This document shows positions 11,385 to 28,420 of a stretch of DNA of 64,000 nt, one piece after another. The DNA lies in NCBI GenBank assembly GCA_963745835.1, contig CAVUZH010000013.1, positions 1 to 64,000 on the forward strand, read 5' to 3'. Position 1 is the first letter of the stretch. Each line of letters opens with the position of its first letter. The translations under genes were made by a program, and so were the position numbers. The notes under the pieces were generated by a model. The model ran no database searches. It was not told where the DNA came from and was given only the letters and a program-made list of their open reading frames with translations. This stretch comes from an uncultured delta proteobacterium. GTDB taxonomy: Bacteria > Desulfobacterota > Binatia > UBA9968.

Positions 11385-11674
11385 CACCTACCAGGACCTT
11401 GGAACACCTCTTGACGTGCCAAGAGATCCAAGCTTCATGAGGATAGTAGTTGGGGCGTTGCGGCTGTCGAATCTCCTTTCCGTGATATGCAACGACCCAT
11501 TCCTGAAATCCCCTCTTGCTCATCGGCCAGTGTTTTTCGGAGACGATGACGGACATGGAGTCGGAAATTGTAAACATGCCCCGGTCGAAAAGCTTGTGAT
11601 GGAGCGAGCACAGGGCGAGGCCGTTGCGCTCCTCGTCGGGACCGCCGGCTTGATGCCATTTGATGTGAGCGGCC
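11385..11674 (-). pseudogene. 3' fragment duplicate of the SBD-HNH endonuclease gene
   Basis: Aligns by eye with 12942-13230 (AAHIKWHQAGGPDEERNGLALCSLHHKLFDRG...). The 5' part is absent. Confidence 0.85.
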
Positions 11675-11820
11675 GTTGGGTCGTTTTAGCTGACCAACGA
11701 GCCCGAGCTTCTATCCGGACGTGATCGCAGTGTGCGGCCGAAGCTTAATCGGACGTCACGAATGTGAGTTATTTGGGAGGAACTCCCACGTTTCGAGAGT
11801 TCCCGAAACGTCGAAATGAG
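11671..11820 (+). repeat. ~290-nt array element, right half, ending in site A
   Basis: TTTTAGCTGACC...GTGCGGCCGA...TAATCGG...GTGAGTTAT...GGAACTCCCACGTTTCGAGAGTTCCCGAAACGTCGAAATGAG. Confidence 0.8.
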
Positions 11821-12042
11821 ACCGGCACTAGCGCCGCCCGTAGGCAGCAGACTTCTCTTGGACCAGGAACCCAATTTTCCTTCTTCTTCGGCTTCGGTCG
11901 TGGGGTAAAAAGGGCGTGGTCGTAATGGTCCGGCGAGATCCGTTTGGAAGGAAGGACTACTGTGAGGGTGATTGGAAACCCCTGCGGGGCAATTATCGCG
12001 TCTTGCTCGTAGGCAGAAAACCGCCGGGTTTCGAAGCCAGGT

Positions 12043-12255
12043 CTATTTGCTGCCAGTTAATTCTGCTTCAAACGGTCGCTCCTTGCGAAAACGGCTGACG
12101 CCGAGAATGCTGAACCCAACCACCTGTCCCTGCTCGTCGACTCGCTCCATCAACGCGTCATGGGTGGTTTCGCGCATAAAGCCGGGCACGTCGCTGAACC
12201 GTACTTCCAAAAAGTCGCCTTCAGGATCGAACCAAACTTTTACTTTTTCGGCCAT
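12043..12255 (-). CDS. DUF2283-like putative antitoxin
   Basis: VKVWFDPEGDFLEVRF...ERVDEQGQVVGFSIL; overlaps the upstream partner gene. Confidence 0.75.
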   Translation of the reverse strand: MAEKVKVWFDPEGDFLEVRFSDVPGFMRETTHDALMERVDEQGQVVGFSILGVSRFRKERPFEAELTGSK

Positions 12256-12551
12256 ACGATTTCTCCTGCTTTCACCGTATCCGTCAGGTATGCGGTAATG
12301 ACAAACGCGTCATCTGGCAAATACTTTACCACCACACACAACCATTTCCTACGCACTCGGGTTTGCGCGTAAAATTCGTAGAAGAGCCTTACGTCATCAT
12401 CGGAGCGCGACCGTCTCACCTCGCTCGGCACGCGCAATACCCGCTCAAGCTCGTCTTCCATGCCGGCCAGTTCGGCGTGTTCCAAAATATGCGCAAGTCG
12501 TTCGTCAGTAAGCCTGACTGATTGGCCAAAGCAATCCAGGATCACTTTCAT
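12240..12551 (-). CDS. Putative toxin, RelE/BECR-like nuclease fold (partner of DUF2283)
   Basis: VRLTDERLAHILEHAEL...WLCVVVKY...FVITAYLTD; two-gene TA layout. Confidence 0.65.
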   Translation of the reverse strand: MKVILDCFGQSVRLTDERLAHILEHAELAGMEDELERVLRVPSEVRRSRSDDDVRLFYEFYAQTRVRRKWLCVVVKYLPDDAFVITAYLTDTVKAGEIVWPKK

Positions 12552-12648
12552 AATCGCAAGATACGGCAGTGAGCAATTCGACGCAATCACTTCAGGTCGA
12601 AGCTCATCGTATCGAGACTAGGTCTGACGGAACGTGCTCATCGTCATC

Positions 12649-12937
12649 GGGTCAAGCGTGAGTTATTGAATTATTACGATAACTATTCACTTCGAGGATT
12701 TTCGAAGCGATTCCTCCGGGGGACGATCGCGGAAAGGGAACGCTTGAATACGCGCATTACGTCAGCCGATCGGCCGAATTTTGGCTGGTCTTTCTAGCCG
12801 ACCATAGGGAACCCGAGCCTTACCCGAACGTCGAATGCATTGTGCGGCGCGCAATCGGTGCTTATTTTCTGGAGAGGCGTAAGTTATACTGGTCGGGAAC
12901 TTCCACGTTTCGAGAATTCCCGAAACATCGAAATGAC
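12649..12937 (+). repeat. ~290-nt array element, full copy ending in site A
   Basis: Starts GGGTCAAGCGTGAGTTATTGA and ends GGAACTTCCACGTTTCGAGAATTCCCGAAACATCGAAATGAC, a few bases from the HNH stop codon. Confidence 0.85.
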
Positions 12938-12941
12938 AGTT

Positions 12942-13876
12942 CTAGTACCGACCAGGACCTTGGAATACCTCTCGGACGTGCCAGGAGATCCAATCTTCAT
13001 GAGGATAGTAGTTGGGGCGTTGCGGGGGTCGAATCTCCTTTCCGTGATATGCAACGACCCATTCCTGAAATCCCCTCGTGCCATTAGCGCTTTCGGAGAC
13101 AATGACTGACATGGAGTCGGAAATTGTAAACACGCCGCGGTCGAAAAGCTTATGGTGGAGCGAGCATAGGGCGAGGCCGTTGCGCTCCTCGTCCGGACCG
13201 CCGGCTTGATGCCATTTAATGTGAGCGGCCTCGACAGCGATCAGAATATTTCCGAGCCGAACATCGAAACCGCACACCGCGCAGCTGTATTCGTAGGCTC
13301 TGAGAACCCGCTCTCGAAATTCCGGATCGCGTGCAATCACGACCCGCGTATCCATTGAAAACTCTATTCCAACCGCATCCAGAATGTCGCGATGTATGGT
13401 CTCAGGAAAATGGGCGTCCAGTAGGTCCTGAACGATCTCGCGGGCGAGGCCATTGTTGCGCGAGAGTTCATCAAACACCTCGGCTGGAAAGCCTCCTTGC
13501 ACATTATTACTCAGCAAGGTTATTTTCGTCGGGCTGTTACTACCAGTCCGTTTCACGAGATCGCGAGTATCGCTCAACTCCCATAAGCCATCAGTCTGCA
13601 GATGCCAAAACGGAAATTCGGGGTGATAGGACTTCCTGCGAGGGCCGAACTCGATGAGAATTTGCGAAGATCGCGATCGACCTGGGCATACTCGATCATG
13701 CGCGGTTCGCCGCGCAGCGCCCGTCCAATGGCATAAAGCGCGAGCAACGGCTTATGCGGCGCCCTCTCCCCGCCTCTTTTCCAGACCGTGATCGCGTCGA
13801 ACTTTTCTTTGATTTCTGTCGGTGTCACTCGTCCTTCCGATTTTAAGATTGTTTCGTTTACTACGACTGAGAGCAA
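12942..13876 (-). CDS. SBD-HNH phosphorothioated-DNA-dependent restriction endonuclease-like protein (frameshift near 13575)
   Basis: N-terminal ERAPHKPLLALY and PFWHL (sulfur-binding domain type); C-terminal RDPEFRERVLRAYEYSCAVCG...EAAHI...NGLALCSLHHKLFD HNH domain. Confidence 0.8.
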
Positions 13877-13932
13877 AGCGCTATAGCTTTTTAGAACGAC
13901 AACTCAGAACGCACGCTCCCGAGGGGCCGCAG

Positions 13933-14045
13933 CAGGGTGAGTCACTGAGTTGTTCCCGTGCAACTACCCACTTAAGTTTTTGGAACGATGTCTTTCGGGG
14001 AACGACTGCGGCAAGGAAGCTTGAGCGCGTGAATATGGAGTGAAT
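13933..14045 (+). repeat. ~290-nt array element, left part only
   Basis: GTGAGTCACTGAGTTG...CAACTACCCACTT...GGAACGACTGCGGCAAGGAAGCTTGAG matches the left portion of the other copies. Confidence 0.75.
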
Positions 14046-14146
14046 CTGTAATTAATTGGCATGGCGAAAGGCTGGTTCAAACGTTCAACGGTTCGATGGT
14101 TCCGGCACGTTCACCATGAGCGGGATTGTACAACAATAGCCGGTCG

Positions 14147-14186
14147 GGAACTTCCACAATCGAGAATTTCCGGAACTAGCGAGTGA
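14147..14186 (+). repeat. Site A, degenerate, preceded by a GTTCMA tract
   Basis: GGAACTTCCACAATCGAGAATTTCCGGAAC. Confidence 0.6.
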
Positions 14187-14205
14187 ACAGCATAAGCAGG
14201 TGCTG

Positions 14206-14397
14206 CTATTTTGGATCTGGGATACCGAGCTGGCGGCAAATCTTGCGTGCGAGGAGGTCGGCGATTTCTATATGTCTTGGAACGGTGGTAATGCGGCGGG
14301 GATCGGCGAGATTGACGTACTTGCTATGTTTTGACCCCTCCTCAGCGAGCGCACATCCGAAGCGTTCCAAATGCCGGATGAGCTCGCGTCGTTTCAC
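14206..14397 (-). CDS. hicA: HicA family toxin
   Basis: MKRRELIRHLERFGC...EGSKH...TTVPRHIEIADLLARKICRQLGI. Confidence 0.92.
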   Translation of the reverse strand: MKRRELIRHLERFGCALAEEGSKHSKYVNLADPRRITTVPRHIEIADLLARKICRQLGIPDPK

Positions 14398-14598
14398 CTA
14401 CACCTCGAGTTGTTCGATCACAATTTTGTTTTTAGGTAGCTTAGAAAGATCAATCGGCTGGCGCATCAGTCGCACCGCATCTATGAGATTCTCCCGCGCC
14501 TCTTCCAATGAAGCCCCTTGTGTCAACGCGCCGGGAACATCATCTGTCCATGCAACCCACCATTTTCCGTCTTGAACAAAACTCGCTTGAATCTTCAT
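14398..14598 (-). CDS. hicB: HicB family antitoxin
   Basis: WWVAWTDDVPGALTQGASLEEARENLIDAV. Confidence 0.92.
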   Translation of the reverse strand: MKIQASFVQDGKWWVAWTDDVPGALTQGASLEEARENLIDAVRLMRQPIDLSKLPKNKIVIEQLEV

Positions 14599-14736
14599 AA
14601 AATCACCTCTTGACTGGAATATTACGCGAAACTGCAAACCGAAGCCAACCCGCGAGCACGTCGCCGCAGACACGATGCTCCGGGGGATAAGATAGGAACC
14701 AGTCGAAATAAGCAGGGGTCACGTCGAAATAAGCAA

Positions 14737-15050
14737 GGTCAGGCGTGAGTTATTGAGTCGTTTCCCCTGTAACTACCCCTCTGGGATTTTCGGAGCGATC
14801 TCTTTGCGAGGAACAACCCTCGGCAAGGAAGCTTTGAGCGCCTGAACATGAAGTGAGCCCCAACGACTGACCACACGCGCATTCCCTTAGCCGATGCCGG
14901 CCGGTTTGAGCTCCTTTTTTAGCTGACCCTACGGAACCTGAGCTTATTTGAAGGTGAGTGCAGCTTTGCAGCCGAGAGGTAATCGGGGGGCTGTGAGTTA
15001 TATGGGCCGAAACTTCAACGTTTCGAGAATTCCCGAAACATCGAAATGAG
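14737..15050 (+). repeat. ~290-nt array element, full copy ending in site A
   Basis: GGTCAGGCGTGAGTTATTGA...TTAGCCGATGCCGGCCG...TTTTTAGCTGACCC...GTGAGTTATAT...site A. Confidence 0.9.
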
Positions 15051-15110
15051 ACGCTGCCCCATCTCCTCGATTACCTCACTCTCCGCTTACAACTTTGACC
15101 CCTGGACACC

Positions 15111-15152
15111 TTTCACGTTTTCGCAATGCGAAAACATGATAACCATCGCTGC
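15111..15152 (+). promoter_or_regulatory. Site B palindrome plus first codons of a truncated ArsR gene
   Basis: TTTCACGTTTTCGCAATGCGAAAACATGATA followed by ACCATCGCTG. Confidence 0.7.
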
Positions 15153-15178
15153 TGGTCTCTGATTCCGCCTTGTTCTCG

Positions 15179-15508
15179 CTATGCGGCTCGGGGAGTGACG
15201 ATGATCCGAGATAGCTCCCGCTCGGATGCTCCAAGACTGATAAGAGATCGAATCAGCAAATCCAAGGAAACCGATGGATCGCCCGCTTCCATTTTGGCGA
15301 CGCGCGACTGGCTCGACTGAAGTTTCGCGGCGAGGTCCAGCTGTGACAAGCCTTGTTGCTGCCGGCGCTGTCTCAAACCTCCCGCCAGCTTAATCTTTAA
15401 GTCGATATAAGCCGACTCCTCGTCGGAGAGACGCAGAAATTCTTTGACCGTACCGATCTTCCAACCCTTCGCCTCCAAACGTTTTCTCTTTGGCTTACGC
15501 ATTCGCAT
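15179..15508 (-). CDS. XRE-family HTH antitoxin (HigA-like), copy 1
   Basis: KRKRLEAKGWKIGTVKEFL...GLSQLDLAAKLQSSQSRVAKMEAGDPSVSLDLLIR. Confidence 0.9.
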   Translation of the reverse strand: MRMRKPKRKRLEAKGWKIGTVKEFLRLSDEESAYIDLKIKLAGGLRQRRQQQGLSQLDLAAKLQSSQSRVAKMEAGDPSVSLDLLIRSLISLGASERELSRIIVTPRAA

Positions 15509-15766
15509 AATCCTTCAGGTCGTTTTTACCAGGCTGTTGAAAAAGCCCATCTACTTCGTTGCGCTCCATCGCCTCGCTCCAACGTACACCGGAGTACGCT
15601 TCTGCTCGTCGGTTGGTCGCGCGCCTCGTATTTGAACATTTTTAATCAGCCTGAAGAGATTGCGCAGTGAAGCAAAAACCCCGCTTCCAATCTGGCTGTC
15701 GACGAGAATGGTGGGGTTTTAAATTTCCCCCTGCAGCCAAACGAGCGGTTTATTCTCTGAGGTCAA
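15495..15766 (-). pseudogene. RelE/Gp49-like toxin with its middle replaced by a MITE, copy 1
   Basis: N-terminus KPLVWLQGEI-KTPPFSSTARLEAGFLL lies to the right of the MITE; C-terminus KRPEGL/RLKDYANA* lies to the left. Confidence 0.75.
15530..15653. mobile_element. ~125-bp MITE-like element with terminal inverted repeats
   Basis: CAGGCTGTTGAAAAA...TTTTTAATCAGCCTG; related copies at 26203, 40638 and 61850. Confidence 0.8.
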
Positions 15767-15772
15767 TAACTA

Positions 15773-15801
15773 ACTGTATGTCAAATATGACATCGCGTCA
15801 A
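15773..15801 (-). promoter_or_regulatory. Sigma70-like promoter with palindromic operator
   Basis: TTGACG-17 bp-TACAGT, 6 nt before a TTG start. The spacer holds the inverted repeat ATGTCATATTTGACAT. Repeated at 26447-26475. Confidence 0.6.
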
Positions 15802-16318
15802 GAATGACAGCCAGTTCGGCATCTGAGAGGAACAAGACAGTTTAGGTCCGTCGAGGAGTTAATGACTTGTTTGTCGGTAACCACCCATCACGCCATCTTG
15901 ATCCTTGAAATAGTACCGCGGCACTTCGGAATTTTGTGCGGTTGACCCCGAATTGAGTCGAGCGAATAGCTTAAGACTCTTACGGGATCGGCCGAGGCTT
16001 CGATACCGGATATTGCACATCCAGACTTCAACGCACTGCTTTAGAGATCAGAAGCCGAGCGGGGGCTCCAGGGCTCGCGGAGTGGTGATGATCCGAGATA
16101 GCTTGCGGTCCTGTCGCGGATCGAACCGTTCCAATCCTTTCAGACGTTCCACCGCTTCGCTCCGTTCAGAACGTTAAAACCTGAAGACCGCTCGAAAGTT
16201 CAGGCGAACCCGTGACACGAACACGCCCGTCGCCGCTACCGGGTTCTTCGCTTCGTTTGCGATAGCCGTGGCTTATTTGCTACCAATTGTGAAACGAATT
16301 TGCGACGGAGTATCGAAG

Positions 16319-17056
16319 ATGAAACTCGCTGAACTTCACTGGCCGGAAGTTGAAAAGCTCGACAGAGAAAAAATAGTCGCCGTGATTCCGGTGGGCTCGA
16401 TGGAGCAACATGGCCCGCACCTGCCCTTTCAGGTCGATGTTTTTTGCGCGTCGCGTCTGGCCGAGGATCTCGAGCAGAAAATCCCGGACGTCCTGCTGGT
16501 GCCGTCGCTTTGGGCCGGTGTTTCGGCGCACCATATGGATTTTCCGGGCTCCATCACTTTGCGCGCCAGAGTCTTCATCGATCTTTTACATGACATCTGC
16601 GGTTCGCTACATCATCATGGCTTCCGCCGGATCGTGCTGTTAAACGGCCACGGCGGCAATCGCTCCAGCCTCGAAGTGCTGGGACAAGAACTCTTCGTCG
16701 AGTTAGGCCTGACCGTGAACACATTGGCTTATTGGGACCTGGTACCGGATTTGGTCAAGTCGCTCAAGAAAACCAAATCGAGCGGCATGGGTCACTCGGG
16801 CGAGCTCGAAACATCGCTGATGCTTTACCTCGCGCCCGAGTTGGTCGATCGGCAAGCTGTTCCGCAGGGAGTTCTCGGCATCGAACCGGCCGGCCCAACG
16901 AGCGGGATCAAACGTTACGTCAATATGAAGGAGCATTCGGCGCAAGGCGTAATCGGTATGCCGTCAGCGGGCACTCCGGAGATCGGCAAAGAGCTATACC
17001 ATGGCGCGCTTAGCGCGCTCGAGAAGGCGGTTCGCACCCTGCAATCTCATGATTGA
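16319..17056 (+). CDS. Creatininase family protein, copy 1
   Basis: PVGSMEQHGPHLP; SAHHMDFPGS; LNGHGGN; GHSGELETS. Confidence 0.93.
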   Translation: MKLAELHWPEVEKLDREKIVAVIPVGSMEQHGPHLPFQVDVFCASRLAEDLEQKIPDVLLVPSLWAGVSAHHMDFPGSITLRARVFIDLLHDICGSLHHHGFRRIVLLNGHGGNRSSLEVLGQELFVELGLTVNTLAYWDLVPDLVKSLKKTKSSGMGHSGELETSLMLYLAPELVDRQAVPQGVLGIEPAGPTSGIKRYVNMKEHSAQGVIGMPSAGTPEIGKELYHGALSALEKAVRTLQSHD

Positions 17057-17074
17057 TTCGAGCCCATCACTGCT

Positions 17075-18109
17075 TCATTTCTTGAAAAACTTTGCATACT
17101 TCTGAGTGAGCTGCTTGTAATCGCTTTCGCTGCGCTGGATCTCTTCGACGAATTTGATTTTATCGGCGTCTTTCAAGGGCGGATGAACACCGCGTAAATT
17201 GACGAACTCGCAATCCTTAGCGAGCGCTTCCATGCTCTCTCGGCTGTACCAATGGTCGATCCATAATTTGGCCGCGTTGACATTTGTCGACCTGGAGCCG
17301 ATCGCGATGTAGTTGCTTTCTCCCAGATACGCGGGCAAACGCACGTAATCCAAAGGCGCGCCGACTTTTCCCATATCGCAAACATATTTAATGTAAGCGA
17401 TGCCGAGCGGCTTCTCGCCGTTGGCGATGCTTTCCACCGCCGGAGTCAGCGAGCGGTGCAGCAGCGGGCGGTTCGACGCCAGGCGCTGAATGTATTCGTC
17501 CTCTTGGGTTTTATCACCCAACACCAAGTGCAGACTGGAGAGCCATTTAGCCATGGACGTATGCGAGGTCGGATCGGACATGGTGGTCTTGCCGTCCCAT
17601 TTTGGGTCGACATAGTCCCAGTAGGATTTCGGCGCGTCCGACGGTTTGATATAGCGGGTATTGTAGACAAAGCCGATAATCGAGCTACGATAATTAGGGC
17701 TATAGAAATCGTGATGAGATCCAGAATCGAAGTTCTTGGCCGCCGGCGTTTGATACTTGAGAAACATTCCCTCGTTTCTCATTATCTCCATGGCATCGAC
17801 GCCGGTGAAGAAAACATCCCAAGTAACTTTGCCGGTGCGGAATTCATTGATAGCGCGATCCATCACCGCGGTCGTTGATGCACGCCAGTAGACGCTTTTG
17901 ACGTCGGGATATTTTTTGTCGAAGCTCGCCTGGATTTCCTTCATCACTTCGTCTTGGAGAGAACCAAAAATAGTGACTTTGCCCTCCTTTCGCGCGGCCT
18001 CGATAAGCGCTTTATCCTGGCTGTTAGCCGAGCGAGAAAGAACGAGCATCAACAGCGAAAACAAGGCACAGACCAAAATCACTCTCCGCTGAAGTGTGCT
18101 CTTATTCAT
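17075..18109 (-). CDS. ABC transporter extracellular solute-binding protein (Fe3+/thiamine/polyamine-like family)
   Basis: Signal peptide; AARKEGKVTIFGS; YNTRYIKPSDAPKSYWDYVDPKWDG; NAAKLWID. Confidence 0.9.
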   Translation of the reverse strand: MNKSTLQRRVILVCALFSLLMLVLSRSANSQDKALIEAARKEGKVTIFGSLQDEVMKEIQASFDKKYPDVKSVYWRASTTAVMDRAINEFRTGKVTWDVFFTGVDAMEIMRNEGMFLKYQTPAAKNFDSGSHHDFYSPNYRSSIIGFVYNTRYIKPSDAPKSYWDYVDPKWDGKTTMSDPTSHTSMAKWLSSLHLVLGDKTQEDEYIQRLASNRPLLHRSLTPAVESIANGEKPLGIAYIKYVCDMGKVGAPLDYVRLPAYLGESNYIAIGSRSTNVNAAKLWIDHWYSRESMEALAKDCEFVNLRGVHPPLKDADKIKFVEEIQRSESDYKQLTQKYAKFFKK

Positions 18110-18295
18110 AAGAACCTCCTTTGACTCGCAAGTTACTGCAAAGCTGATCGATCATATCATCCAAGTAGTTTGCCAGGCGCGGTCAGGACAAGACCTATCA
18201 CGAATAGGACGATCAGGGCTAACACGCCATTGATCGACGCTTGAAACTCATTGCGCCAAGAACTCGGTGATTCCGGATCAAGCAGTTCAATAATC

Positions 18296-18572
18296 GGGTC
18301 AGGCGTGAGTTATTGACTTATTTCCTTTGCGATAGCCAGTTTGGAATTTTCGGCCCGATCTCTTTCCGGGAACGACTGCGGTAAGGAAGCTTGAGTACCT
18401 GATCATTGAGCCCGAACAAATGACGAGAACGTGCATTACGTTAGCCGATCCGCCGGATCTGAGCTCGTCTTTTTTAGCTGACCCTACGGAACCTGAGCTG
18501 ATTTGAGCGGTGACGCAGCGTGCAGCCGAACGAGTAATCGGAGGTCACGGGTGAGTTATATGAGCGGAATTC
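18296..18572 (+). repeat. ~290-nt array element, full body (site A displaced ~90 bp downstream)
   Basis: GGGTCAGGCGTGAGTTATTGA...GCATTACGTTAGCCGAT...TAATCGGAGGTCACGGGTGAGTTATAT. Confidence 0.9.
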
Positions 18573-18659
18573 AGTAGACACGGATAGTAACAAAGGTTAG
18601 CGGTAAAAGGAAAGACACAGACGCTGTGCTTTCCAAAGTTAAATGGTTCAACGACAGAC

Positions 18660-18802
18660 GGAACTTCCACGTTTCGAGAATTCCCGAAACGTCGAAATGA
18701 GAGCGCTGCCCCATCTCCTCCGAACCTCACTCTCCGCTGACAACTTCGGCCCCTGGGTTTTCACGTTTTCGCAATTGCGAAAACATGATAGGCATCGCTG
18801 CC
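18660..18802 (+). repeat. Site A, conserved linker, site B and ArsR 5' stub
   Basis: GGAACTTCCACGTTTCGAGAATTCCCGAAACGTCGAAATGAG...TTTCACGTTTTCGCAATTGCGAAAACATGATA. Confidence 0.85.
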
Positions 18803-18972
18803 ATCAACGGAGTGGCGCAGTTCGGTCAGTTCCAATGGTTCCAAACGTTTAAAGGCAAGGCTCGTTCAGCGTCAAAAGTTCAACCTCGGCGCGGAACTTC
18901 CACGTTTCGATCTTCAACCGCTACGCTCGTTAGGATGGTTCGACAAGCTCACACTTAACCAATGATACGAGG

Positions 18973-19000
18973 TTGACAATATACGGCGCTGACGTATAAT
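18973..19000 (+). promoter_or_regulatory. Consensus sigma70 promoter of the higBA-like module
   Basis: TTGACA-16 bp-TATAAT. Confidence 0.75.
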
Positions 19001-19007
19001 CACGAGC

Positions 19008-19319
19008 ACGTACACCTTCGTTGAAACCAAACAGTTCTCACGACTAGTTCGGGAGTATCTCTCGGACGATGATTATGCATCCTTGCAGCGCGCCCTGATC
19101 GCCAATCCCGCGGCTGGCGTCGTCATCCCTGGAACGGGCGGGCTCCGTAAAATCCGCTGGGCAGTGTCTGGTAAAGGTAAGCGGGGAGGCGTGCGGGTCA
19201 TTTACTATGGCAAGATGCGCGCAGGCATCATTTGGATGCTAACGATTTACGGTAAGAATGTAGAAGCGAACATTCCCGCTCATATCCTGCGACGGATTAA
19301 GGAGGAAATGAATGCCTAA
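19008..19319 (+). CDS. RelE/HigB2-like toxin (apparent start codon ACG)
   Basis: YTFVETKQFSRLVREYLSDDDY...VIPGTGGLRKIRW...GKRGGVRVIYY; the frame is open from 19008. Confidence 0.88.
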   Translation, partial: TYTFVETKQFSRLVREYLSDDDYASLQRALIANPAAGVVIPGTGGLRKIRWAVSGKGKRGGVRVIYYGKMRAGIIWMLTIYGKNVEANIPAHILRRIKEEMNA

Positions 19320-19734: not shown

Positions 19735-19895
19735 GCCGTTCCAAGCGGTTGCACCAGTTTCATCGCTTCCCTCTTTGTCGGATCGGTCAAGTTCCAATCG
19801 TTCCAGTGGTTCGATCGCTTCGCGCATTATCGGATCGAGCCGTTCCAAGGTTCCAATAGTTCCAAACGTTCAACCGCTTCGCTTCGTTCAAACGT
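19735..19895 (+). repeat. GTTCMA tandem tract (representative copy)
   Basis: Units such as GTTCCAATC, GTTCCAGTG, GTTCCAAG, GTTCCAAAC and GTTCAACC, with the embedded motifs GGATCGAGCCGTTCC and CCGCTTCGCT. Confidence 0.75.
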
Positions 19896-20883: not shown

Positions 20884-20915
20884 TTTCATGTTTTCGCAAT
20901 TGCGAAAACATGATA
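20884..20915. promoter_or_regulatory. Site B 32-bp palindrome overlapping the ArsR start (putative operator)
   Basis: TTTCATGTTTTCGCAATTGCGAAAACATGATA. Confidence 0.7.
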
Positions 20916-21230
20916 AGCATCGCTGCCGTGGAAGAGATCACCTATAGGCAATCGCGGCTGTGTCGTCTGCTCGGTAACCCGGTGGCGTTTGCCGTGGTCG
21001 CTTTGCTCACCAACGGTAAAGACCTGAGCACCAGTGAGATAGCAAAGGCTATCGGCCGGAGCGTACCGCGCACGAGCAATATCTTGGGCGCGTTGAGGCT
21101 TGCCGAGTTAGTGCGCTATGAGACCGAAGGGAGATACGCGCGGTATCGACTGAAGCATCCGCGCCAGATACGGAGAATTCTCGAGGCGCTTTCCGAATTT
21201 GTAAAAACCACATCCGTGGCGCGTCGTTGA
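20910..21230 (+). CDS. ArsR/SmtB-family winged-helix regulator (only intact copy)
   Basis: SRLCRLLGNPVAFAVV...STSEIAKAIGRSVPRTSNILGALRLAELVRYETEGRYARYRL. The true start could be the downstream GTG. Confidence 0.85.
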   Translation: MISIAAVEEITYRQSRLCRLLGNPVAFAVVALLTNGKDLSTSEIAKAIGRSVPRTSNILGALRLAELVRYETEGRYARYRLKHPRQIRRILEALSEFVKTTSVARR

Positions 21231-21896: not shown

Positions 21897-21966
21897 CTTC
21901 CCGATGATATTTCCCGTCTTCGGTCGCCTCAAATAAACTTCACTGATTCGAGTAATCGACAATCGC

Positions 21967-22283
21967 GGTCGGGCATGAGTTATTGAGTTGTTTCCCAGCA
22001 ACTACCCACTTAGGATTTCGGAGCGATCTCCGTCGGGAAGAACCCACGGCAAGGTCGATTGAGTGCCTGAACATAGATTGAGCCATAACGGATCACGACA
22101 AGGCGTTACGTTAGCCGATGCCGGCCGGATTTGTTCGGCTTGTCTTAGCTGACTCTAGAGAACCTGAGCTTATTTAAACGCCGAGCGCCGCGTGCGGCCG
22201 AAGGCGTAATCGGAGGTCAGGGGTGTGAGTTATATGCGCCCGAACTTCCACGTTTCGGGAATTCCCCGAAACGTCGAAATGAG
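21967..22283 (+). repeat. ~290-nt array element, full copy ending in site A
   Basis: GGTCGGGCATGAGTTATTGA...GGTCAGGGGTGTGAGTTATAT...GAACTTCCACGTTTCGGGAATTCCCCGAAACGTCGAAATGAG. Confidence 0.9.
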
Positions 22284-22822: not shown

Positions 22823-22825
22823 TGT

Positions 22826-23023
22826 CTAGTCGTAGACGTCCACGAACCGCCCGCGGCCTTTCCGTATCAAGTCCTTTAGGCTGGCTTGAATCTCTCGATT
22901 CGCGAGGGTTTCTTGGAGAGCCTTGGTCACTGCCTCGGTATTGCTTGAAGCCTTTAGAGTTTTTCGTGCCTTTCGAAGGAGCTTTTCACTTAACAGCACA
23001 GTAGTGCGCTTCTCGGTCGCCAT
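22826..23023 (-). CDS. VapB-like antitoxin
   Basis: KRTTVLLSEKLLRKARK...SNTEAVTKAL ribbon-helix-helix pattern, upstream of vapC. Confidence 0.8.
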   Translation of the reverse strand: MATEKRTTVLLSEKLLRKARKTLKASSNTEAVTKALQETLANREIQASLKDLIRKGRGRFVDVYD

Positions 23024-23259
23024 TTCATTCCCTCCCGGCTGCTAAGCTACCATTGTCCCGCAAACCCTTCAATTCAATGCTTGGGAAAGTGATGGTGGTC
23101 GTGCCTTGTGGGATCGGGGAAAAGCCGTACTCGTTGGGTGTGATTCTTAGGAGATGAAGGAGAAGGGATAAAGGATAAGCCAGAAAAGGACGTGAGCGTG
23201 ATGAACCGTGATCGTGTTCGGGGGTCGTGCTCGGAATTGGGGGCTCATGCTAACTCAGC

Positions 23260-23298
23260 GGAGTTTTCTACGTTTCGAGAATCCCGAACGTCGAGATG
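23260..23298 (+). repeat. Site A, degenerate
   Basis: GGAGTTTTCTACGTTTCGAGAATCCCGAACGTCGAGATG. Confidence 0.7.
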
Positions 23299-23444
23299 TC
23301 AATATTGGCGAATCCGATAATGGTACGAGACATTTTGCGCTTTACCCGCTTTACCAAAAGTCGATCCGGTTTGTGCTGGCGCAGGGTCGGCCTCTTTCCC
23401 CGACTTCCGGCAGGGTTTCGCGTGGTGGTTCACCACAGATCGAA

Positions 23445-23720
23445 CTAAGCGGCATGCTCCAAAGCGAGTCCCTTGATTCGCGAACGAACCGGGCTCAGTT
23501 TCTTCACGGTAATGGAAATGAGCGGTTGGCCCTTCTTGGCTTGCCTTTTCGCCCATCGTGCGCTCCACTGATTGAATTTTTGATTCCCGGCCAATTTCAT
23601 GAATACGATCGCATCGCGCGGAATCTTCTCCGTAATCTCCGGATGCTCCAAAACATACTTTTCAAACTCGAATAAAAGATCGAGATTCTTCTCTATCATC
23701 TTCTTTTCGGCTGACGTCAT
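23445..23720 (-). CDS. DUF5647-like protein (putative antitoxin)
   Basis: EKNLDLLFEFEKYVLEHPEITEKIP; paralogous to 27493-27756. Confidence 0.7.
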   Translation of the reverse strand: MTSAEKKMIEKNLDLLFEFEKYVLEHPEITEKIPRDAIVFMKLAGNQKFNQWSARWAKRQAKKGQPLISITVKKLSPVRSRIKGLALEHAA

Positions 23721-23776
23721 GGCCATTCTCCTCGCAAAAAGCGCCCTCGATATACAGACCAGTTTTGCTTGATCTC
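23717..23776 (-). pseudogene. C-terminal remnant of the upstream partner gene
   Basis: EIKQNWSVYRGRFLRGEWP* matches DINDNWDIYQQRFLRGDYP* at 27753. Confidence 0.7.
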
Positions 23777-23839
23777 CCGTTCGGCTCGCATGAGCACTGC
23801 GCCACAACTCAGCGGCAGTCTTCGTTTTTTGGCGGCAGA

Positions 23840-24163
23840 CTAAAGCTCTACCCGGAGCAACTCGCCCGAGCGGCTTTTCGCAATAGCCGCCAGCAGACTT
23901 GGGACAAGAGGAATGAGATCCTCAAGCGCATTGCTGGGTGCAATGAGCAGGATGATTCCGATACGTGATTGTGAGAGGTTTTGTTGAAACTCTAGATTGC
24001 GATCCGCGGTGACTAGAACCTCAAAACCCGCGGCCGCAGCAACACGAAGTAGCTCGCCGTTCTGAAGCCCGGCCCACCCGCGCTGCTGAACAGTGCTGAC
24101 ATCGTGCCCACCGATTTCTCTGGCGAGGTGACGCGGCAGTTGTTCATCGAGCAGCACGTGCAT
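23840..24163 (-). CDS. DUF5615 PIN-like toxin
   Basis: MHVLLDEQLP...GHDVSTV...GWAGLQNGELL...VLVTADRNL. Confidence 0.9.
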   Translation of the reverse strand: MHVLLDEQLPRHLAREIGGHDVSTVQQRGWAGLQNGELLRVAAAAGFEVLVTADRNLEFQQNLSQSRIGIILLIAPSNALEDLIPLVPSLLAAIAKSRSGELLRVEL

Positions 24164-24371
24164 CGGCCGTCAAAACTTCGTGCGCGTTTTCGAGAACGGC
24201 GATCGCCTGTTCTTTGGAGACTGTAGGGAACGCATCAAGAAACTCATCGATACCGTGTCCACGCTCGAGATAGTCAAACAGGTTTCGCAGAGGAACGCGC
24301 GTGCCGACGAACACCGGAGTCCCTCCCAGGATTTCCGGGTCGCTATGCACTACCGAAAGTCTTTTAGCCAT
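24144..24371 (-). CDS. DUF433 antitoxin
   Basis: DPEILGGTPVFVGTRVP...IDEFLDAFPTV. Confidence 0.93.
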   Translation of the reverse strand: MAKRLSVVHSDPEILGGTPVFVGTRVPLRNLFDYLERGHGIDEFLDAFPTVSKEQAIAVLENAHEVLTADARAAR

Positions 24372-24500
24372 AAAAGCTCCGTTGAGAACATACCTCCGAC
24401 CTTGCGCTTAACAATATATCCTATGCTCAGCGGCCCTCCAACTGTTCGAAAGAACGAGGCGTAATCTTGGATGACGGAACGAAGGCAACAGCACCCGCAC

Positions 24501-24807
24501 GGGCTCAGCCGTCAGTTATTGAGTTTTCCAACTGCAACTATCCGCTTCCGGATTTTCGGAGCGATCTCCTTCGGCGAACAACCTCGGCAAGGAAGGGCAA
24601 CATAAATTGAGCCATAACGAATAACGACAACCGCATTACGTTAGCCGATGCCGGCCGGATTGGGGTTCGTTGTTTTTAGCTGAGCCTGGCGAACTGAGCT
24701 ATCGAAACGCTGAGCGCAGTGCGGCCGAGGGGATAATCGGAGGTGGGTGCGAGTTATATGCGCCCGAACTTCCATGTTTCGAGAATTCCCCGAAACCTCG
24801 AAATGAG
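24501..24807 (+). repeat. ~290-nt array element, full copy ending in site A
   Basis: CAGTTATTGA...TTTTCGGAGCGATCTC...GCATTACGTTAGCCGATGCCGGCCG...GAGTTATATGCGCCCGAACTTCCATGTTTCGAGAATTCC. Confidence 0.9.
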
Positions 24808-24829
24808 AGACAAACCTGCGAGGGAAACT

Positions 24830-25078
24830 CTAACTCGCTTGAGCTAAAGGCTCTTGGTTTTGAATAACGATTTTGGGATTCGGGTTTTCGTTAGGGACCG
24901 GTAGCGATTGTTTTTTTAGCAGCTCGAGATGTTCCTCCATACCCCACCTGGCTTGATAAACGCAGTCTTCAATAGAGTGACCGATGCCGGTAAACCCTTC
25001 GAGATCCGGCGAGTAAAAGCCAAAAAACGTTGGATCATCCGTCGCTTCGATTACCAACGAATATTTTAGATCAATCAC
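24830..25078 (-). CDS. hicB: HicB family antitoxin (orphaned)
   Basis: YSLVIEAT...FYSPDLEGFTGIGHSIEDC...LPVP. Confidence 0.82.
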   Translation of the reverse strand: MIDLKYSLVIEATDDPTFFGFYSPDLEGFTGIGHSIEDCVYQARWGMEEHLELLKKQSLPVPNENPNPKIVIQNQEPLAQAS

Positions 25079-25092
25079 GGTACTTCTCCTCA

Positions 25093-25138
25093 CTATCGCT
25101 TCAAACCGGCAGCTTTCAGAATGGCGTTGCAAGTTCCC
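25093..25138 (-). pseudogene. C-terminal remnant of HicA toxin
   Basis: GTCNAILKAAGLKR* is a typical HicA ending and lies just upstream of hicB. Confidence 0.7.
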
Positions 25139-25284
25139 GTCGGGAAAGCCGTTCCTATTTAGTCAACGGTAACTTTTATGCCATTCAAATTGAACGACCG
25201 CTTTTGCAATTACAATTCTCTTGCTGGATTTCGCGAGAGAATGATACGAGTCTCAAGTCGTAACTTGTTCTTCTCGCCCGATGC

Positions 25285-25497
25285 TCAGGAGACTTTGCTG
25301 GCGTGGTGCTTGCGGACTTCTTCGAGCAATTCATCTACATTGAATTGCGAAAAATACTCCCGCCGCCATTCCTGATAGTCGAAAGGCTCGCGGGAAACCA
25401 ACGCGAGAAAACGCAACGCATCGACAGGGCCCAAGCTCTCGCTCAATGCCTGAACAGCCTGACGCCGCAACTCGTTTTCGGAAAGTTTTTTAGCCAT
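25285..25497 (-). CDS. Small putative antitoxin downstream of a PIN gene
   Basis: ELRRQAVQALSESLGPVDALRFL...FDYQEWRR; overlaps the PIN stop codon. Confidence 0.7.
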   Translation of the reverse strand: MAKKLSENELRRQAVQALSESLGPVDALRFLALVSREPFDYQEWRREYFSQFNVDELLEEVRKHHASKVS

Positions 25498-25699
25498 TGC
25501 CTGCCACCTCCTGCAAGTATGCCACAGGGTTAAGAACCCGTAAACTCAGGTCGAGGCGCCTGGCTCGTCGCACCATTATGTCATCACAGGTCAATACGAC
25601 TTCGGCGCCACCAATTTCCGCCGCTGCCAAATGCGCCGCATCCAAGGCGAGAATCCCCTGTTGCGCAAATTCCCGAGAGATCCCGCCAGACGTTTTCAA
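25490..25699 (-). pseudogene. 5'-truncated PIN-domain toxin
   Basis: LDAAHLAAAEIGGAEVVLTCDD...VLNP is the C-terminal half; no N-terminal D-T motif is present. Confidence 0.75.
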
Positions 25700-25782
25700 G
25701 AGTTATGCAAGGGATCGATCGACCACACTGCCGCATCTCTTCATTGGCCTTATCTCGGATTACAACTTTGACCCTGGACACC

Positions 25783-25827
25783 TTCCATGTTTTCGCAATT
25801 GCGAAAACATGATAAGCATCGCTGCCA
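25783..25827 (+). promoter_or_regulatory. Site B plus ArsR 5' stub
   Basis: TTCCATGTTTTCGCAATTGCGAAAACATGATAAGCATCGCTGCC. Confidence 0.75.
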
Positions 25828-25851
25828 GTCCCTAATTCCGCCTTGTTCTTG

Positions 25852-26181
25852 CTACGCCGCTCGGGGTGTGACGATGATGCGAGATAACTCCCGCTCGGAG
25901 GCTCCAAGACTGATAAGCGATCGAATCAGCAAATCGAGGGAAACCGATGGATCCCCTGCTTCCATCTTGGCCACACGCGATTGGCTCGACTGAAGTTTCG
26001 CGGCCAGGTCCAGCTGTGATAAGCCTTGTTGCTGCCGGCGCTGTCTCAAACCTGCCGCCAGCTTAATCTTTAAGTCGATATAAGCCGACTCCTCGTCGGA
26101 AAGACGCAGAAATTCTTTGACGGTGCCGATTTTCCAACCCTTCGCCTCCAAACGTTTTCTCTTTGCCCTACGCATTCGCAT
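25852..26181 (-). CDS. XRE-family HTH antitoxin, copy 2
   Basis: Protein nearly identical to 15179-15508. Confidence 0.9.
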   Translation of the reverse strand: MRMRRAKRKRLEAKGWKIGTVKEFLRLSDEESAYIDLKIKLAAGLRQRRQQQGLSQLDLAAKLQSSQSRVAKMEAGDPSVSLDLLIRSLISLGASERELSRIIVTPRAA

Positions 26182-26439
26182 AATCCTTCAGGTCGTTTTT
26201 ACCAGGCTGTTGAAAAAGCCCATCTACTTCGTTGCGCTCCATCGCCTCGCTCCAACGTACACCGGAGTACGCTTCTGCTCGTCGGTTGAGTCGCGCGCCT
26301 CGTATTTGAACATTTTTAATCAGCCTGAAGAGATTGCGCAGTGAAGCAAAAACCCCGCTTCCAACCTGGCTGTCGACGAGAATGGTGGGGTTTTAATTTC
26401 CCCCTGCAGCCAAACGAGCGGTTTATCTTCCGAGGTCAA
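26168..26439 (-). pseudogene. RelE/Gp49-like toxin disrupted by MITE, copy 2
   Basis: KPLVWLQGEIKTPPFSSTARLEAGFLL followed by the MITE at the same position as in copy 1. Confidence 0.75.
26203..26327. mobile_element. ~125-bp MITE-like element
   Basis: Near-identical to 15530-15653. Confidence 0.8.
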
Positions 26440-26494
26440 CAATCTAACTGTATGTCAAATATGACATGTCGTCAAGGAATATCAACGGATAGCG

Positions 26495-26756
26495 ACGTTA
26501 GCCGATGCCGGTCGGATGTTGGCTCTTTTTTTTAGCTGACCCTGCAGAACCTGAGTTTATTTCAACGGTGTGCGCAGCGTTCGGCCAAGGGGTGATCGGC
26601 GGTCAGGGCTGTAACTTATCTGCGCGGGAACTTCCACGTTTCGAGAATTCCCGAAACGTCGAAGTGAGAGCACTCTCCCATCTTCATGGCCTCACTCTTC
26701 GCTGACAACTTTGACCCTGCATACTTTCACGTTTTCGCAATTGCGAAAACATGATA
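26495..26756 (+). repeat. ~290-nt element right half, site A, linker and site B
   Basis: ACGTTAGCCGATGCCGG...TTTTTAGCTGACCC...site A at 26627-26668...site B at 26725-26756. Confidence 0.88.
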
Positions 26757-27070
26757 ACCATCGCTGCCGTGGAAGAGATCACCTATAGGCAATCGCGGCT
26801 GTGTCGTCTGCTCGGCATCCGGTGGCGTTTGCCGTAGTCGCCTTGCTCACCAACGGTAAAGACCTGAGCACCAGTGAGATAGCAAAGGCTATCGGCCGGA
26901 GCGTACCGCGCACGAGCAATATCTTGGGCGCGTTGAGGCTTGCCGAGTTAGTGCGCTATGAGACCGAAGGGAGATACGCGCGTTATCGACTGAAACATCC
27001 GCGCCCGATACGGAGAATTCTCGAGGCGCTTTCCGAGTTTGTAAAAACCACATCTGTGGCGCCCGGTTGA
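26751..27070 (+). CDS. ArsR-family regulator, full-length copy with a 1-nt frameshift near 26815
   Basis: Nearly identical to 20910-21230. Confidence 0.8.
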
Positions 27071-27134
27071 TCGCAACCCGTTCAAAGTTCAACGGTTCAA
27101 CAGTTCAATGGCAGACGGGAACTTCAGCGAAAAG

Positions 27135-27395
27135 TTATTTTTCTAGACCTAGACGCCGGCGCAGTTCGCTGGCCGAGATGGCGCCCTGTTTTTTAACGCG
27201 GTTTCTGGAGCGCTCGATAATAGCTACAAATTTGCGGCTCATACTGAGCGCTATAGTTTCCTCATCCGCGTTGCGGAGCGGAATCACAGCCGCGAACGGC
27301 TTGCCCCGTTTGATTACGATGACCGGATCTTTTCTTGCCTTTTCTGCATACTCGGAAAGTGGCCCGGACGTTTTTTTGAATTCAACTTTTGTCAT
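27135..27395 (-). CDS. Phd/YefM-like antitoxin (orphaned)
   Basis: LSEYAEKARKDPVIVIKRGKPFAAVIPL. Confidence 0.8.
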   Translation of the reverse strand: MTKVEFKKTSGPLSEYAEKARKDPVIVIKRGKPFAAVIPLRNADEETIALSMSRKFVAIIERSRNRVKKQGAISASELRRRLGLEK

Positions 27396-27445
27396 AATTT
27401 GATTGTCTCTCCGCCGATCCGCACCCGGCCCTTCTCTTTAATGCC
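27392..27445 (-). pseudogene. C-terminal remnant of a RelE-like toxin
   Basis: GIKEKGRVRIGGETIKL*, with its stop codon overlapping the antitoxin ATG (ATGA). Confidence 0.65.
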
Positions 27446-27492
27446 ATGCCTCCGCTTCGGCGAAACGAGCGTTACAGCGTCGACCGACTCGT

Positions 27493-27756
27493 CTAACCTG
27501 ACGCGCTGACCTCAAGTTCTTCAATGCGCGACCGAATGGGTTGAATGCGCTTGATCTTCACGTACACAATCCGCTGTTCTTTTTCAGCTTGGCGTTGTGC
27601 GCCTTCTTGACTCCACCGATTAAATTCTTGATCCCCTTCAACCAACATAGCCACCAATGCATTCTCTGGAATCCGTTCGGCGAAATCCGGGTGCTCCCGA
27701 ACATACCGGTCAAATTCAGTGACAAGCTCGGCATTTTTCTGCTCGAAAACATTCAT
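27493..27756 (-). CDS. DUF5647-like protein
   Basis: EQKNAELVTEFDRYVREHPDFAERIPENA. Confidence 0.72.
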   Translation of the reverse strand: MNVFEQKNAELVTEFDRYVREHPDFAERIPENALVAMLVEGDQEFNRWSQEGAQRQAEKEQRIVYVKIKRIQPIRSRIEELEVSASG

Positions 27757-28066
27757 GGATAATCTCCTCTTAGAAAGCGCTGTTGGTAAATATCCCAATT
27801 GTCGTTTATGTCTTTGTCCGCGAGATCCAGAGACTCAGCGTAACTCAACGCGATCTCTTGCTTGTCCTGATCACCCTTTAAGTTGTACCGATCACGATGA
27901 GCGAAGTCGTGGGCGCAATCGTACCAATCACCGGCTTCCAAACCCCTTCTTCGACTTCCACTTCCAGCTGCAACGTGAACGTGAGTAGAGTCCCTTTATC
28001 AGTTTTGTGATGATGGCGCTTTCGTGCATGTTCACCAAGACGAATGAGGTATTCCTTTTCAGCCAA
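27753..28066 (-). CDS. Small partner protein of DUF5647 (putative toxin), frameshift near 27925
   Basis: RKRHHHKTDKG...FTLQLEVE...WKPV / YDCAHDFAHRD...DINDNWDIY. Confidence 0.65.
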
Positions 28067-28180
28067 GAGTTATCCGCTTTCCTGATGTTAGCATTGTCGG
28101 ATTATACGCTGCCTCTATCTGAGGCTCAATCTGACATCTAAACCGCCGCGGGCAATCTATGTCCGCACGGTCATCGGGCC

Positions 28181-28420
28181 GTCAGGACGTGACTTATTGA
28201 CTCGTTTCCGTGTAACTATCCCTTCGAGAATTTTCGGATCGACCTCCTTCGGGGAACAAAGTGGCAAGCGAACTTTGAGCGCTGAATAGAATTTGAGCCC
28301 TCACGAATGACGACGCGCATTGCATCCAGCCGATGTCGGCCGACTTTGGGCTCTCGTTTTTTTAGCCGACCCGAGGACCCTGAGCTGATTTGAGCGGTGA
28401 GCGCAGCGTGCGGCGAGGAA
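28181..28420 (+). repeat. ~290-nt array element lacking its right end
   Basis: GTCAGGACGTGACTTATTGA...TTTTTAGCCGACCC...CTGAGCTGATTTGAGCGGTGAGCGCAGCGTGCGG. Confidence 0.82.

Follow-up and report, generated by a model that had tools for sequence, protein, structure and literature searches.

Small genes, mostly on the minus strand and many of them arranged as toxin–antitoxin pairs, occupy ~11.6–31 kb of the 64,000-nt stretch analyzed here (hereafter the window). The window is the first 64 kb of contig CAVUZH010000013.1 (C13) in assembly GCA_963745835.1, from an uncultured delta proteobacterium of the Binatia (7.28 Mb in 25 contigs, 97.1% complete, 9.3% contamination). A non-coding element of ~250–280 nt (~270) recurs in this array, mostly next to an imperfect 12-8-12 palindrome, TTCCACGTTTCG-AGAATTCC-CGAAACGTCGAA (a 13-6-13 reading is also possible), which we call D1. 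The locus therefore raises the question of what this repeated element is. We give about an even chance to the answer that it is a genus-restricted, non-coding mosaic DNA repeat, either similar to the bacterial interspersed mosaic elements (BIMEs) or a non-autonomous relative of the repetitive extragenic palindromic (REP) sequences and their REP-associated tyrosine transposases (RAYTs), and not an RNA or a decayed protein gene. In the following, G000 is the present genome, with contigs C5, C13, C22 and C24; G005, G006, G018, G030 and G062 are other genomes of the family; L numbers denote loci from relatives, L142 and L143 being metagenome contigs.

Using an nhmmer profile built from the six full copies and run on the window and on the whole genome, all nine same-strand copies listed in an earlier note on this DNA were recovered, with starts within ~10 nt. 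Six copies are full or near-full (E-values 5e-53 to 3e-79) and three are partial, all on the plus strand:

11678..11777, plus strand: partial copy, 3' part (profile positions 176–277; nhmmer E 8.6e-10), abutting a truncated HNH duplicate
12648..12893, plus strand: full copy in a short form, without ~30 nt of the central segment (nhmmer), with orthologous copies on L142 and L143
13937..14045, plus strand: partial copy, 5' half (nhmmer E 4e-21)
14736..15007, plus strand: full copy (nhmmer and alignment)
18295..18565, plus strand: full copy, the sole one with a ~95-nt insert between element and D1 (nhmmer)
21966..22240, plus strand: full copy, used as the reference copy (nhmmer)
24502..24764, plus strand: full copy (nhmmer)
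26485..26625, plus strand: partial copy, 3' half (nhmmer E 1.2e-27)
28181..28460, plus strand: near-full copy, its 3' end diverged or replaced in this genome (nhmmer)

A contig of metagenome run X4 carries copy 28181 with a normal 3' end and D1 (joint 28411->12891, 38 letters between). Outside the array, the same profile finds 5'-part copies at C22:289549, C22:279352, C13:708489 and, on the minus strand, C5:158547; a short variant at C13:707446 came from a motif scan. These five weaker partial or short copies contradict the claim that the element is restricted to the array; it is concentrated there, not strictly confined. The short variants consist of the left terminal motif, ~30 nt, GTTCAA 9-mers and D1, and stand at C5:158523, at C13:707446 and in G006. 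The element is present in 3/90 family genomes, all of one genus, and a metagenome pattern scan, which returned only the two contigs L142 and L143, yielded four further copies. A search for element plus D1 gave no match in the plasmid collection or the phage collection. Three species of the genus share a 5' half of the element at the same place, where it precedes a conserved 305-aa gene of the same orientation by 70 nt (G000 C22:289549–289673; L104 in G005; L102 in G006). This insertion is older than the split between them.

Part of the evidence for this answer comes from the ends of the element. The motif GGTCA..GTGAGTTAT is visible in alignments at both ends in direct orientation, framing ordered conserved blocks, as the earlier note had described. 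In the reference copy, the motif and its relatives are placed as follows:

21966..21992, plus strand: left terminal motif (GGGTCAGGCRTGAGTTATTGA...), homologous to the 27-nt terminal inverted repeat of a RAYT-like Y1 gene
22215..22236, plus strand: right terminal motif (GGTCAGGGGTGTGAGTTATATG), which repeats the left motif directly, in diverged form (alignment)
22147..22155, minus strand: internal short inverted copy of the terminal motif (AGCTGACyC), within one of the most conserved blocks

The Y1 gene was found in relatives as three intact units of ~1.02 kb (L125, L126 and L132), each reading GGGGTCAGGCATGAGTTATTGACTTA, then 45 nt, then a gene for 313–314 aa. The far end of this gene reads ...CATGCCTGACCCC, and its last codons and stop overlap ...TTAAGTCAACAACTCATGCCTGACCCC (...AACTCATGCCTGACCCC), which repeats the 27 nt of the left end in inverted orientation. 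The genome with L126 (G018) is unpublished, and the claim holds on L125 and L132 alone. The encoded protein scores 61.6 bits against Pfam Y1_Tnp (cut-off 23) and carries in addition a C-terminal DnaA_C-type helix-turn-helix (HTH); its best NCBIfam match is the REP-associated tyrosine transposase model (NF047646), at 68.7 bits, and the IS200 model gives 21.3 bits (cut-off 55). A ~1.02-kb unit with non-palindromic 27-nt terminal inverted repeats is unusual for Y1/HUH transposase genes. By blastn, left ends of the element match both repeats of the Y1 unit at 88–96% over 25–27 nt. The reference left motif is 88% identical over 26 nt to the left repeat and 83–87% identical to the inverted right repeat of L125/L126/L132, and the left motif of copy 18295 reaches 96% over 27 nt. 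The body of the element has no similarity to the interior of the Y1 transposase unit. At L132:621–1640, the far repeat of the Y1 unit is followed by three tandem GCTGACTTATGCCTGACCCC units.

The link to Y1 genes is also seen when the family is searched with the end motif. The earlier note had likened the minus-strand end of the element to CTGACCCC motifs beside Y1/RAYT genes, and this lead was borne out: the end-motif search leads to Y1 genes in relatives. The 15-mer GGCRTGAGTTATTGA has 18 exact matches in 11/90 family genomes, 13 of which are not element copies. Six of these 13 sites have a Y1 gene or gene fragment ~50–350 nt downstream (tblastn), and a seventh was seen by eye (L135). The unpublished genomes G012, G018 and G093 are included in the counts of GGCRTGAGTTATTGA, of D1 and of integron integrases across the family. 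When ≤5 mismatches are allowed, G000 has 19 copies of the end motif, and a control scan with the reversed motif gives 0. Of the matching RAYT-like gene, this genome retains only fragments on contig C5 (14769–15090, 18508–18612 and 21871–22037), suggesting that the element family is decaying here; the other Y1 paralogues of G000 are intact and ≤49% identical over the aligned parts. Inside the element, the 7-nt inverted copy (AGCTGACCC) pairs with the left end in 79% of cells, compared with 14–53% for a slid partner. Copy 24502 changed both sides of this pairing together, and the covariation is weak, as 33/500 shuffles reach the observed score.

Between the two ends, pairwise identity among the copies is 53–79%, with a mean of 66% in the 8-copy alignment, and the block order is constant. 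In the same alignment, invariant and variable columns fall into 47 runs, compared with 67.8 ± 4.1 in permutations, none of 5000 being as low, and the windowed variance of conservation is 0.0052 versus 0.0028 permuted (1/5000). The block signal is somewhat inflated, because aligners anchor on conserved blocks. The column clustering agrees with the earlier description of blockwise rather than uniformly random divergence.

The blocks do not reflect a protein. Each of the six full copies has stops in every one of its six reading frames, a tblastx comparison with all of G000 gave 0 matches outside the known copies (248 in total), and tblastn of Y1 proteins against the element returned nothing below E 0.5. 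These results rule out a decayed protein gene and uphold the statement that no open reading frame (ORF) is conserved. A known RNA family is ruled out as well, as Rfam gave 0 matches over the whole window at the gathering score, and 0 between 11600 and 30500 even at E≤1. RNAalifold gave weak structures on six copies (−14.6 and −12.4 kcal/mol over 307 columns) and near nothing on 11 copies over ~290 columns (plus strand −3.25 kcal/mol, 16 pairs; minus strand −3.84 kcal/mol, 13 pairs), a set that includes one copy from another species and four from metagenome contigs. The proposal of a structured non-coding RNA is thus not supported. Single-copy folds have z of about −2.5 on both strands, much of it from the adjoining D1 palindrome. 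A helix of ATTACG (block 6) with CGTAAT (block 9) was considered and dropped, as the changes are not compensatory in the alignment read by eye. No sigma-70-like promoter was found inside any copy in a promoter scan. Among assembled contigs of four runs, no listed piece from the two RNA-library runs spans an element copy, a result that has no bearing on transcription, since contigs reveal neither strand nor transcript ends. Conservation in primary sequence without a consensus fold points to recognition at the DNA level.

The right end of the element keeps a fixed distance from D1. From the last GTTAT of the element to TTCCACG of D1 there are 11–13 nt in nine copies, five in the window, one in G005 and three in L142/L143. 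The D1 sites of the window span 11784–37715, all on the plus strand:

11784..11815, plus strand: D1 beside partial copy 11678 (repeat family D1, 11774–11814)
12901..12931, plus strand: D1 beside copy 12648, with a minus-strand gene stop 10 nt further on
15014..15044, plus strand: D1 beside copy 14736 (repeat family D1)
18665..18695, plus strand: D1 after copy 18295 (DNA fold −7.8 kcal/mol)
22246..22278, plus strand: D1 beside copy 21966 (DNA fold −12.1 kcal/mol, z −4.5)
23267..23298, plus strand: degenerate D1 at the upstream-side end of a VapBC cassette, read directly, and the far end of a 1018-nt circular contig
24770..24802, plus strand: D1 beside copy 24502 (repeat family D1, 24760–24800)
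26632..26662, plus strand: D1 beside partial copy 26485 (repeat family D1)
29301..29331, plus strand: D1 without element, with GTTCAA 9-mers before it (repeat family D1)
30381..30412, plus strand: D1 without element (repeat family D1)

Further sites without the element lie at 37685 and, degenerate, at 14142. D1 is 90–97% identical in 30/36 family genomes; two sister families, searched in 24 genomes, lack it, and the species-representative collection holds 38 stretches with D1. In G062, which is near-complete and belongs to another genus, 22 kb contain 14 D1 sites of the same orientation (L099/L100; C2:1246529–1268993). Genes are present on the right of 11 of these sites, and at 8 of the 11 a small minus-strand gene ends there at a distance of 14–53 nt. 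The two arms of D1 are kept different in 62/79 sites of relatives, and half-site types are mixed in 33/79, a pattern no less compatible with a directional protein site than with a hairpin. Among 103 ORFs of ≥170 aa that lie ≤3 kb from D1 at ~60 loci, recombinase families are not overrepresented (ORF6N is the most frequent family, with 7 members), and no recombinase stands at the array borders in G000 or G062. D1 was also considered as the REP sequence of a RAYT and rejected for the genomes examined: none of the 7 Y1 matches in G062 adjoins D1, the nearest being 11.6 and 24 kb away, and Y1 fragments occur in only 4 scanned D1 loci (L010–L076, L099, L100), none of them flanking D1. The slot to the left of D1, which the element fills in one genus, has other occupants, including GTTCAA/GTTCCA 9-mers, CGTGCTCGTG-type repeats and, in the G062 array, an IS110-family transposase gene. 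With several repeat families in this slot, D1 looks like an accumulation site for selfish DNA. The IS110-family gene (L099:15072–16058; G062:C2:1251071–1252057) lies 376 nt from a perfect D1, and a Mutator-family transposase is found further along the same array; D1 arrays collect insertion sequences.

Cassettes have been reshuffled at D1 between strains. To the right of one shared block of gene pair, element and D1, the sequences of G000, L142 and L143 are unrelated to each other; identity runs as far as ...CGAAATG and ends there. An orthologous DUF4258/MqsA cassette has the element upstream in L142 and none in G000; its homology covers the two genes only, both flanks differ, and the break points are the gene borders, not D1. 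Within the window, a right-hand cassette starting with a second palindrome, D6, follows three different element copies. Metagenome contigs join different element copies to each other, and one of run X4 joins D1 at 26663 to 28719; several or many of these joints have short sides (<30 nt), and they may stem from other organisms or repeats. The 1018-nt circular contig, from a run filed as metatranscriptomic, extends from the center of D1 (22265) across the VapBC cassette as far as the degenerate D1 (23282) and is 90–95% identical to the window. It could be an excised cassette circle or a repeat-induced assembly loop.

In the explanation that we favor, the element has three components. Its left motif is a copy of the 27-nt repeat of the ~1-kb RAYT-like Y1 gene, accompanied by the diverged direct copy at the right end and the 7–9-nt inverted copy inside. 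The second component is ~200 nt of block-conserved filler, with neither coding nor folding signal, and the third a fixed dock that sets the last GTTAT 11–13 nt before the cassette-separating D1. The Y1 enzyme may have mobilized the copies in trans through the common end motif, or recombination at D1 or between copies may have carried them along, or both. The conserved blocks would then be protein-binding DNA.

Several results weigh against this explanation. The likeness of the right end to the Y1-unit repeat is weak (82% over 17 nt in copy 18295), and the RAYT-like protein, at 68.7 bits, is below the NCBIfam RAYT cut-off of 80. The end motif is not a hairpin, as three left motifs and one right motif, folded as DNA, range from −0.3 to −1.8 kcal/mol, with z of +0.4 to +1.7. 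Y1 enzymes recognize hairpins, so such a motif is a poor fit to them. The two long end motifs are direct and ~245 nt apart, unlike the inverted repeats of the Y1 gene or of a hairpin-forming REP doublet (REPIN). These direct long motifs, together with the lack of a hairpin, argue against filing the element as a REPIN or an IS200-type derivative. The earlier proposal of a non-autonomous, Y1/RAYT-linked element is borne out as to the end motif, which is the terminal inverted repeat of a RAYT-like Y1 gene. No empty site or exactly bounded filled site was recovered, so transposition can only be inferred. A repeat that is purely selfish would not be expected to conserve internal blocks, which call for a binding protein, and three orthologous copies differ at 9/110 block columns versus 16/97 other columns, a weak sign of present constraint.

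The fixed spacing and orientation of the element beside D1 could instead be explained if D1 were the core of a complex recombination site and the element its accessory arm, the 12-nt inverted arms and 8-nt spacer of D1 being like those of lox, FRT and dif. Element and D1 would then resemble attL or attR, a recombinase would cut out and put in cassettes at D1, and the blocks and direct repeats would be arm-type sites or sites for bending proteins. D1 sites are co-oriented both in the array and in the 14-site array of the other genus, cassette order varies between strains with homology ending at D1, the arms are kept different as for a directional site and half-sites are often hybrid, a D1-to-D1 circular contig surrounds the VapBC cassette, and conservation is blockwise without RNA structure, all of which this explanation accommodates. 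We nevertheless consider it unlikely, as no recombinase family is enriched near D1 or flanks the arrays in G000 or G062, and most D1 sites, including all those outside one genus, lack the element, which is thus not required. Moreover, the circular contig can arise in k-mer assembly from a repeat at both ends, and the G000/L142 cassette has homology that ends at gene borders. It is also improbable, in our view, that the array as a whole represents an undescribed kind of gene-cassette system, split by direct lox/dif-shaped D1 sites and independent of integron integrases and Y1 transposases, in which one genus would have recruited a RAYT-like repeat as the protein-binding module of an accessory arm.

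Two further explanations were considered. If the copies were simply passengers of old segmental duplication or unequal recombination, with blocks partly due to alignment anchoring, then the many other duplications, truncations and gene fragments of the array, and the fact that several copies are halves, would be expected; copy 12648 is also off the family consensus in 23 block columns, compared with 16–17 in its orthologues. Yet the copies keep the same block order at only 53–79% identity between unrelated flanking cassettes, the column clustering is strong (0/5000 permutations), and the spacing to D1 is kept across species, which makes an element without function rather doubtful. Very unlikely is an element that is transcribed and acts as RNA, as a 5' leader or promoter module of the minus-strand genes or as a ~190-nt plus-strand small RNA ending at a T-run. 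A minus-strand gene does start 58–186 nt to the left of 5/6 full copies and of one partial copy, a hairpin plus T-run was called in copy 26485 (plus strand) and the T-run is conserved, the single-copy folds are somewhat stable, though including the D1 hairpin, and the syntenic 5' half lies 70 nt upstream of the co-oriented 305-aa gene in three species. Against these stand the lack of a consensus fold and of almost any compensatory change on either strand of 11 copies, the blank Rfam search and the missing sigma-70-like promoters. In addition, copy 21966 has no minus-strand gene on its left, and the genes that would be served belong to unrelated families. The mosaic DNA repeat, with its RAYT-like end motif and its dock at D1, is the best-supported explanation.

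REP sequences, REPINs and RAYTs are understood here as defined in three papers (PMC3337134, PMC3116915, PMC5581495). As in REP/RAYT systems, inverted copies of a short repeat bracket a single Y1/HUH transposase-like gene, the left one 45 nt before the start and the inverted one over the stop (L125, L126, L132), and solo or paired intergenic copies also exist; in G000, only decayed gene fragments stand beside such repeats. The repeat unit differs from REP in being non-palindromic and in having only ~19 copies. A REPIN is an inverted pair with a short spacer, whereas the long motifs here are direct and ~245 nt apart, with only a 7-nt inverted copy inside. The protein differs from RAYTs in its extra DnaA_C-type HTH and its score below the RAYT cut-off, and the gene is decayed here and has varying contexts in relatives.

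BIMEs are intergenic mosaics of REP-type units and conserved motifs in fixed order; they are non-coding and act at the DNA level as protein-binding sites. Their REP units alternate in orientation, and they are dispersed genome-wide in enterobacteria. The present element is likewise a non-coding intergenic mosaic of an end motif and ordered conserved blocks, but most of its copies lie in a single cassette array, within one genus, and it is tied to the unrelated palindrome D1. Palindrome-associated transposable elements (PATEs) are non-autonomous derivatives of the IS200/IS605 family. According to PMC6006769, IS200/IS605 elements use a Y1 HUH enzyme and a single-strand logic. The element shares with them that both ends are read on one strand and can look like direct repeats, and that no target duplication is evident. 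However, IS200/IS605 ends have subterminal hairpins, and the left end of the element does not fold, which also separates it from PATEs; the score of 21.3 bits on the IS200 model is likewise far from the cut-off of 55. To our knowledge, IS200/IS605 elements are without terminal inverted repeats, in contrast to the Y1 unit here with its 27-nt pair.

Integron arrays, such as those of the Vibrio cholerae repeats (VCRs) and the clusters of attC sites lacking an integrase (CALINs), are toxin–antitoxin-rich and have a same-orientation repeat at each cassette border. Their attC sites have inverted cores, R''(RYYYAAC)...R'(GTTRRRY), and form imperfect hairpins of 55–150 nt. The array shares with integrons its wealth of toxin–antitoxin genes, a co-oriented border repeat and unrelated genes between related repeats, and the co-oriented repeat at the 3' side of cassettes is D1, not the ~270-nt element. 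Integron integrases above the TIGR02249 cut-off are present in 19/41 family genomes (~460–480 bits). In G000, the best TIGR02249 match has 86 bits against a cut-off of 265, with the array 11 kb from the contig end and the genome 97% complete. D1 was found in none of 10 integron integrase loci, nor in three 20-kb flanks (both sides in G062, upstream in G030). A crude scan for attC-shaped sequences gave 0 candidates in 9000–31000, compared with 6 matches (3 distinct stretches, both strands) in a control region, 40000–62000. D1 has the core order GTT...AAC instead of AAC...GTT, and the element is far longer than attC. A classical integron was thus rejected, given the absence of an integrase in G000 and of D1 at integrase loci, and the blank attC-shaped scan. 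A full-text literature search found no paper on Binatota plus integron.

D1 has further parallels among recombination sites. Acinetobacter pdif modules are small, often toxin–antitoxin units between short inverted-arm sites, shuffled among replicons (PMC13141974, PMC6449649, PMC10132070), and IS1202-family elements target pdif sites at a fixed 5 bp in one orientation (PMC10132070). D1 also has two inverted arms round a 6–8-nt spacer, a likeness of shape only, and it looks like a site that gathers repeats, much as pdif sites attract IS1202-family elements. In contrast, pdif sites are inversely oriented plasmid sites with known Xer dependence, whereas D1 is direct in both arrays examined and chromosomal; D1 is unlike dif in sequence, and the element has no transposase. 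Lambda-type attP, attL and attR sites combine a core with an arm of repeated arm-type sites and have a cognate integrase nearby. Here, direct repeats and conserved blocks lie to one side of D1, and the neighborhood of D1 yielded no integrase.

The array genes belong to several families: HicA with a DUF1902 partner, PIN/VapB, ParE with an Unstab_antitox-family antitoxin (PF09720), DUF4258/MqsA-like, DUF433/DUF5615, DUF5647 and HNH nuclease. Other duplications, truncations and gene fragments are also frequent in the array (repeat families D2, D4, D5 and D13–D17), and ordinary transport and metabolic genes follow on its right. Positions 1–11000 of the window hold gene fragments and look like a graveyard at the contig end, with low G+C at the start (0.44–0.47); the pieces include 132 aa of an HMG-CoA reductase (5858–6256), 267 aa of an SNF2/ResIII-type helicase (8731–9534) and a weak FMN-dehydrogenase piece. 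The stretch 11413–11674 duplicates 12975–13230 and is a truncated copy of the 3' part of an HNH-nuclease gene. It is fused straight to the 3' part of element copy 11678, a scar left by deletion or recombination. At 14690–14736, immediately before copy 14736, a 21-nt unit is tandemly duplicated (GTCGAAATAAGCA+GGGTCA), linking a D1-right-arm-like string to the first bases of the end motif, which may be a recombination footprint or chance.

D6 is a perfect palindrome (GTTTTCGCAATTGCGAAAAC) with half-sites related to those of D1, standing directly before an ATG. Its sites, ~20 nt each, lie at 15117, 18765, 19947, 20890, 25789 and 26731, and also at C24:369890. In these six window copies, the first 18 nt of the ORF are common to all and are followed by two different continuations. 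A MarR/TrmB-like winged-helix gene follows two D6 copies (20910–21230 and 26801–27070), which gives D6 the look of an operator. Runs of the GTTCAA/GTTCCA 9-mers occur at 18829–18856, 19842–19877, 27087–27112, 28489–28525, 29255–29280, 30345–30370, 35989–36016, 37407–37442 and 43867–43892. In relatives, the 9-mers form inverted arrays around 23S_rRNA_IVP-family (four-helix-bundle) genes. In one case (L090:16430–16470 and 16906–16954) the framed gene is wedged after lexA, and in another (L087:2060–2140 and 2540–2580) it is 140 nt from an integron integrase gene. The 9-mer repeat is also found at L090:18737–18794 inside a 332-aa ORF (18071–19069; no Pfam match), in frame as ...NDLTDLNELNDLNDLN..., an apparent in-frame repeat insertion.

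In summary, an unexplained repeat becomes a testable pair, a 27-nt motif and a 314-aa Y1/HUH protein with an added HTH. A Y1 gene with non-palindromic terminal repeats clashes with the textbook picture of Y1 enzymes that read hairpins. D1 is found family-wide, punctuates toxin–antitoxin cassettes and marks strain differences in cassette order. If D1 is a recombination site, this poorly known soil phylum would have an integron-like assembly of defense and addiction genes; if it is not, the region still clearly exemplifies how several families of selfish repeats can accumulate at one type of site.

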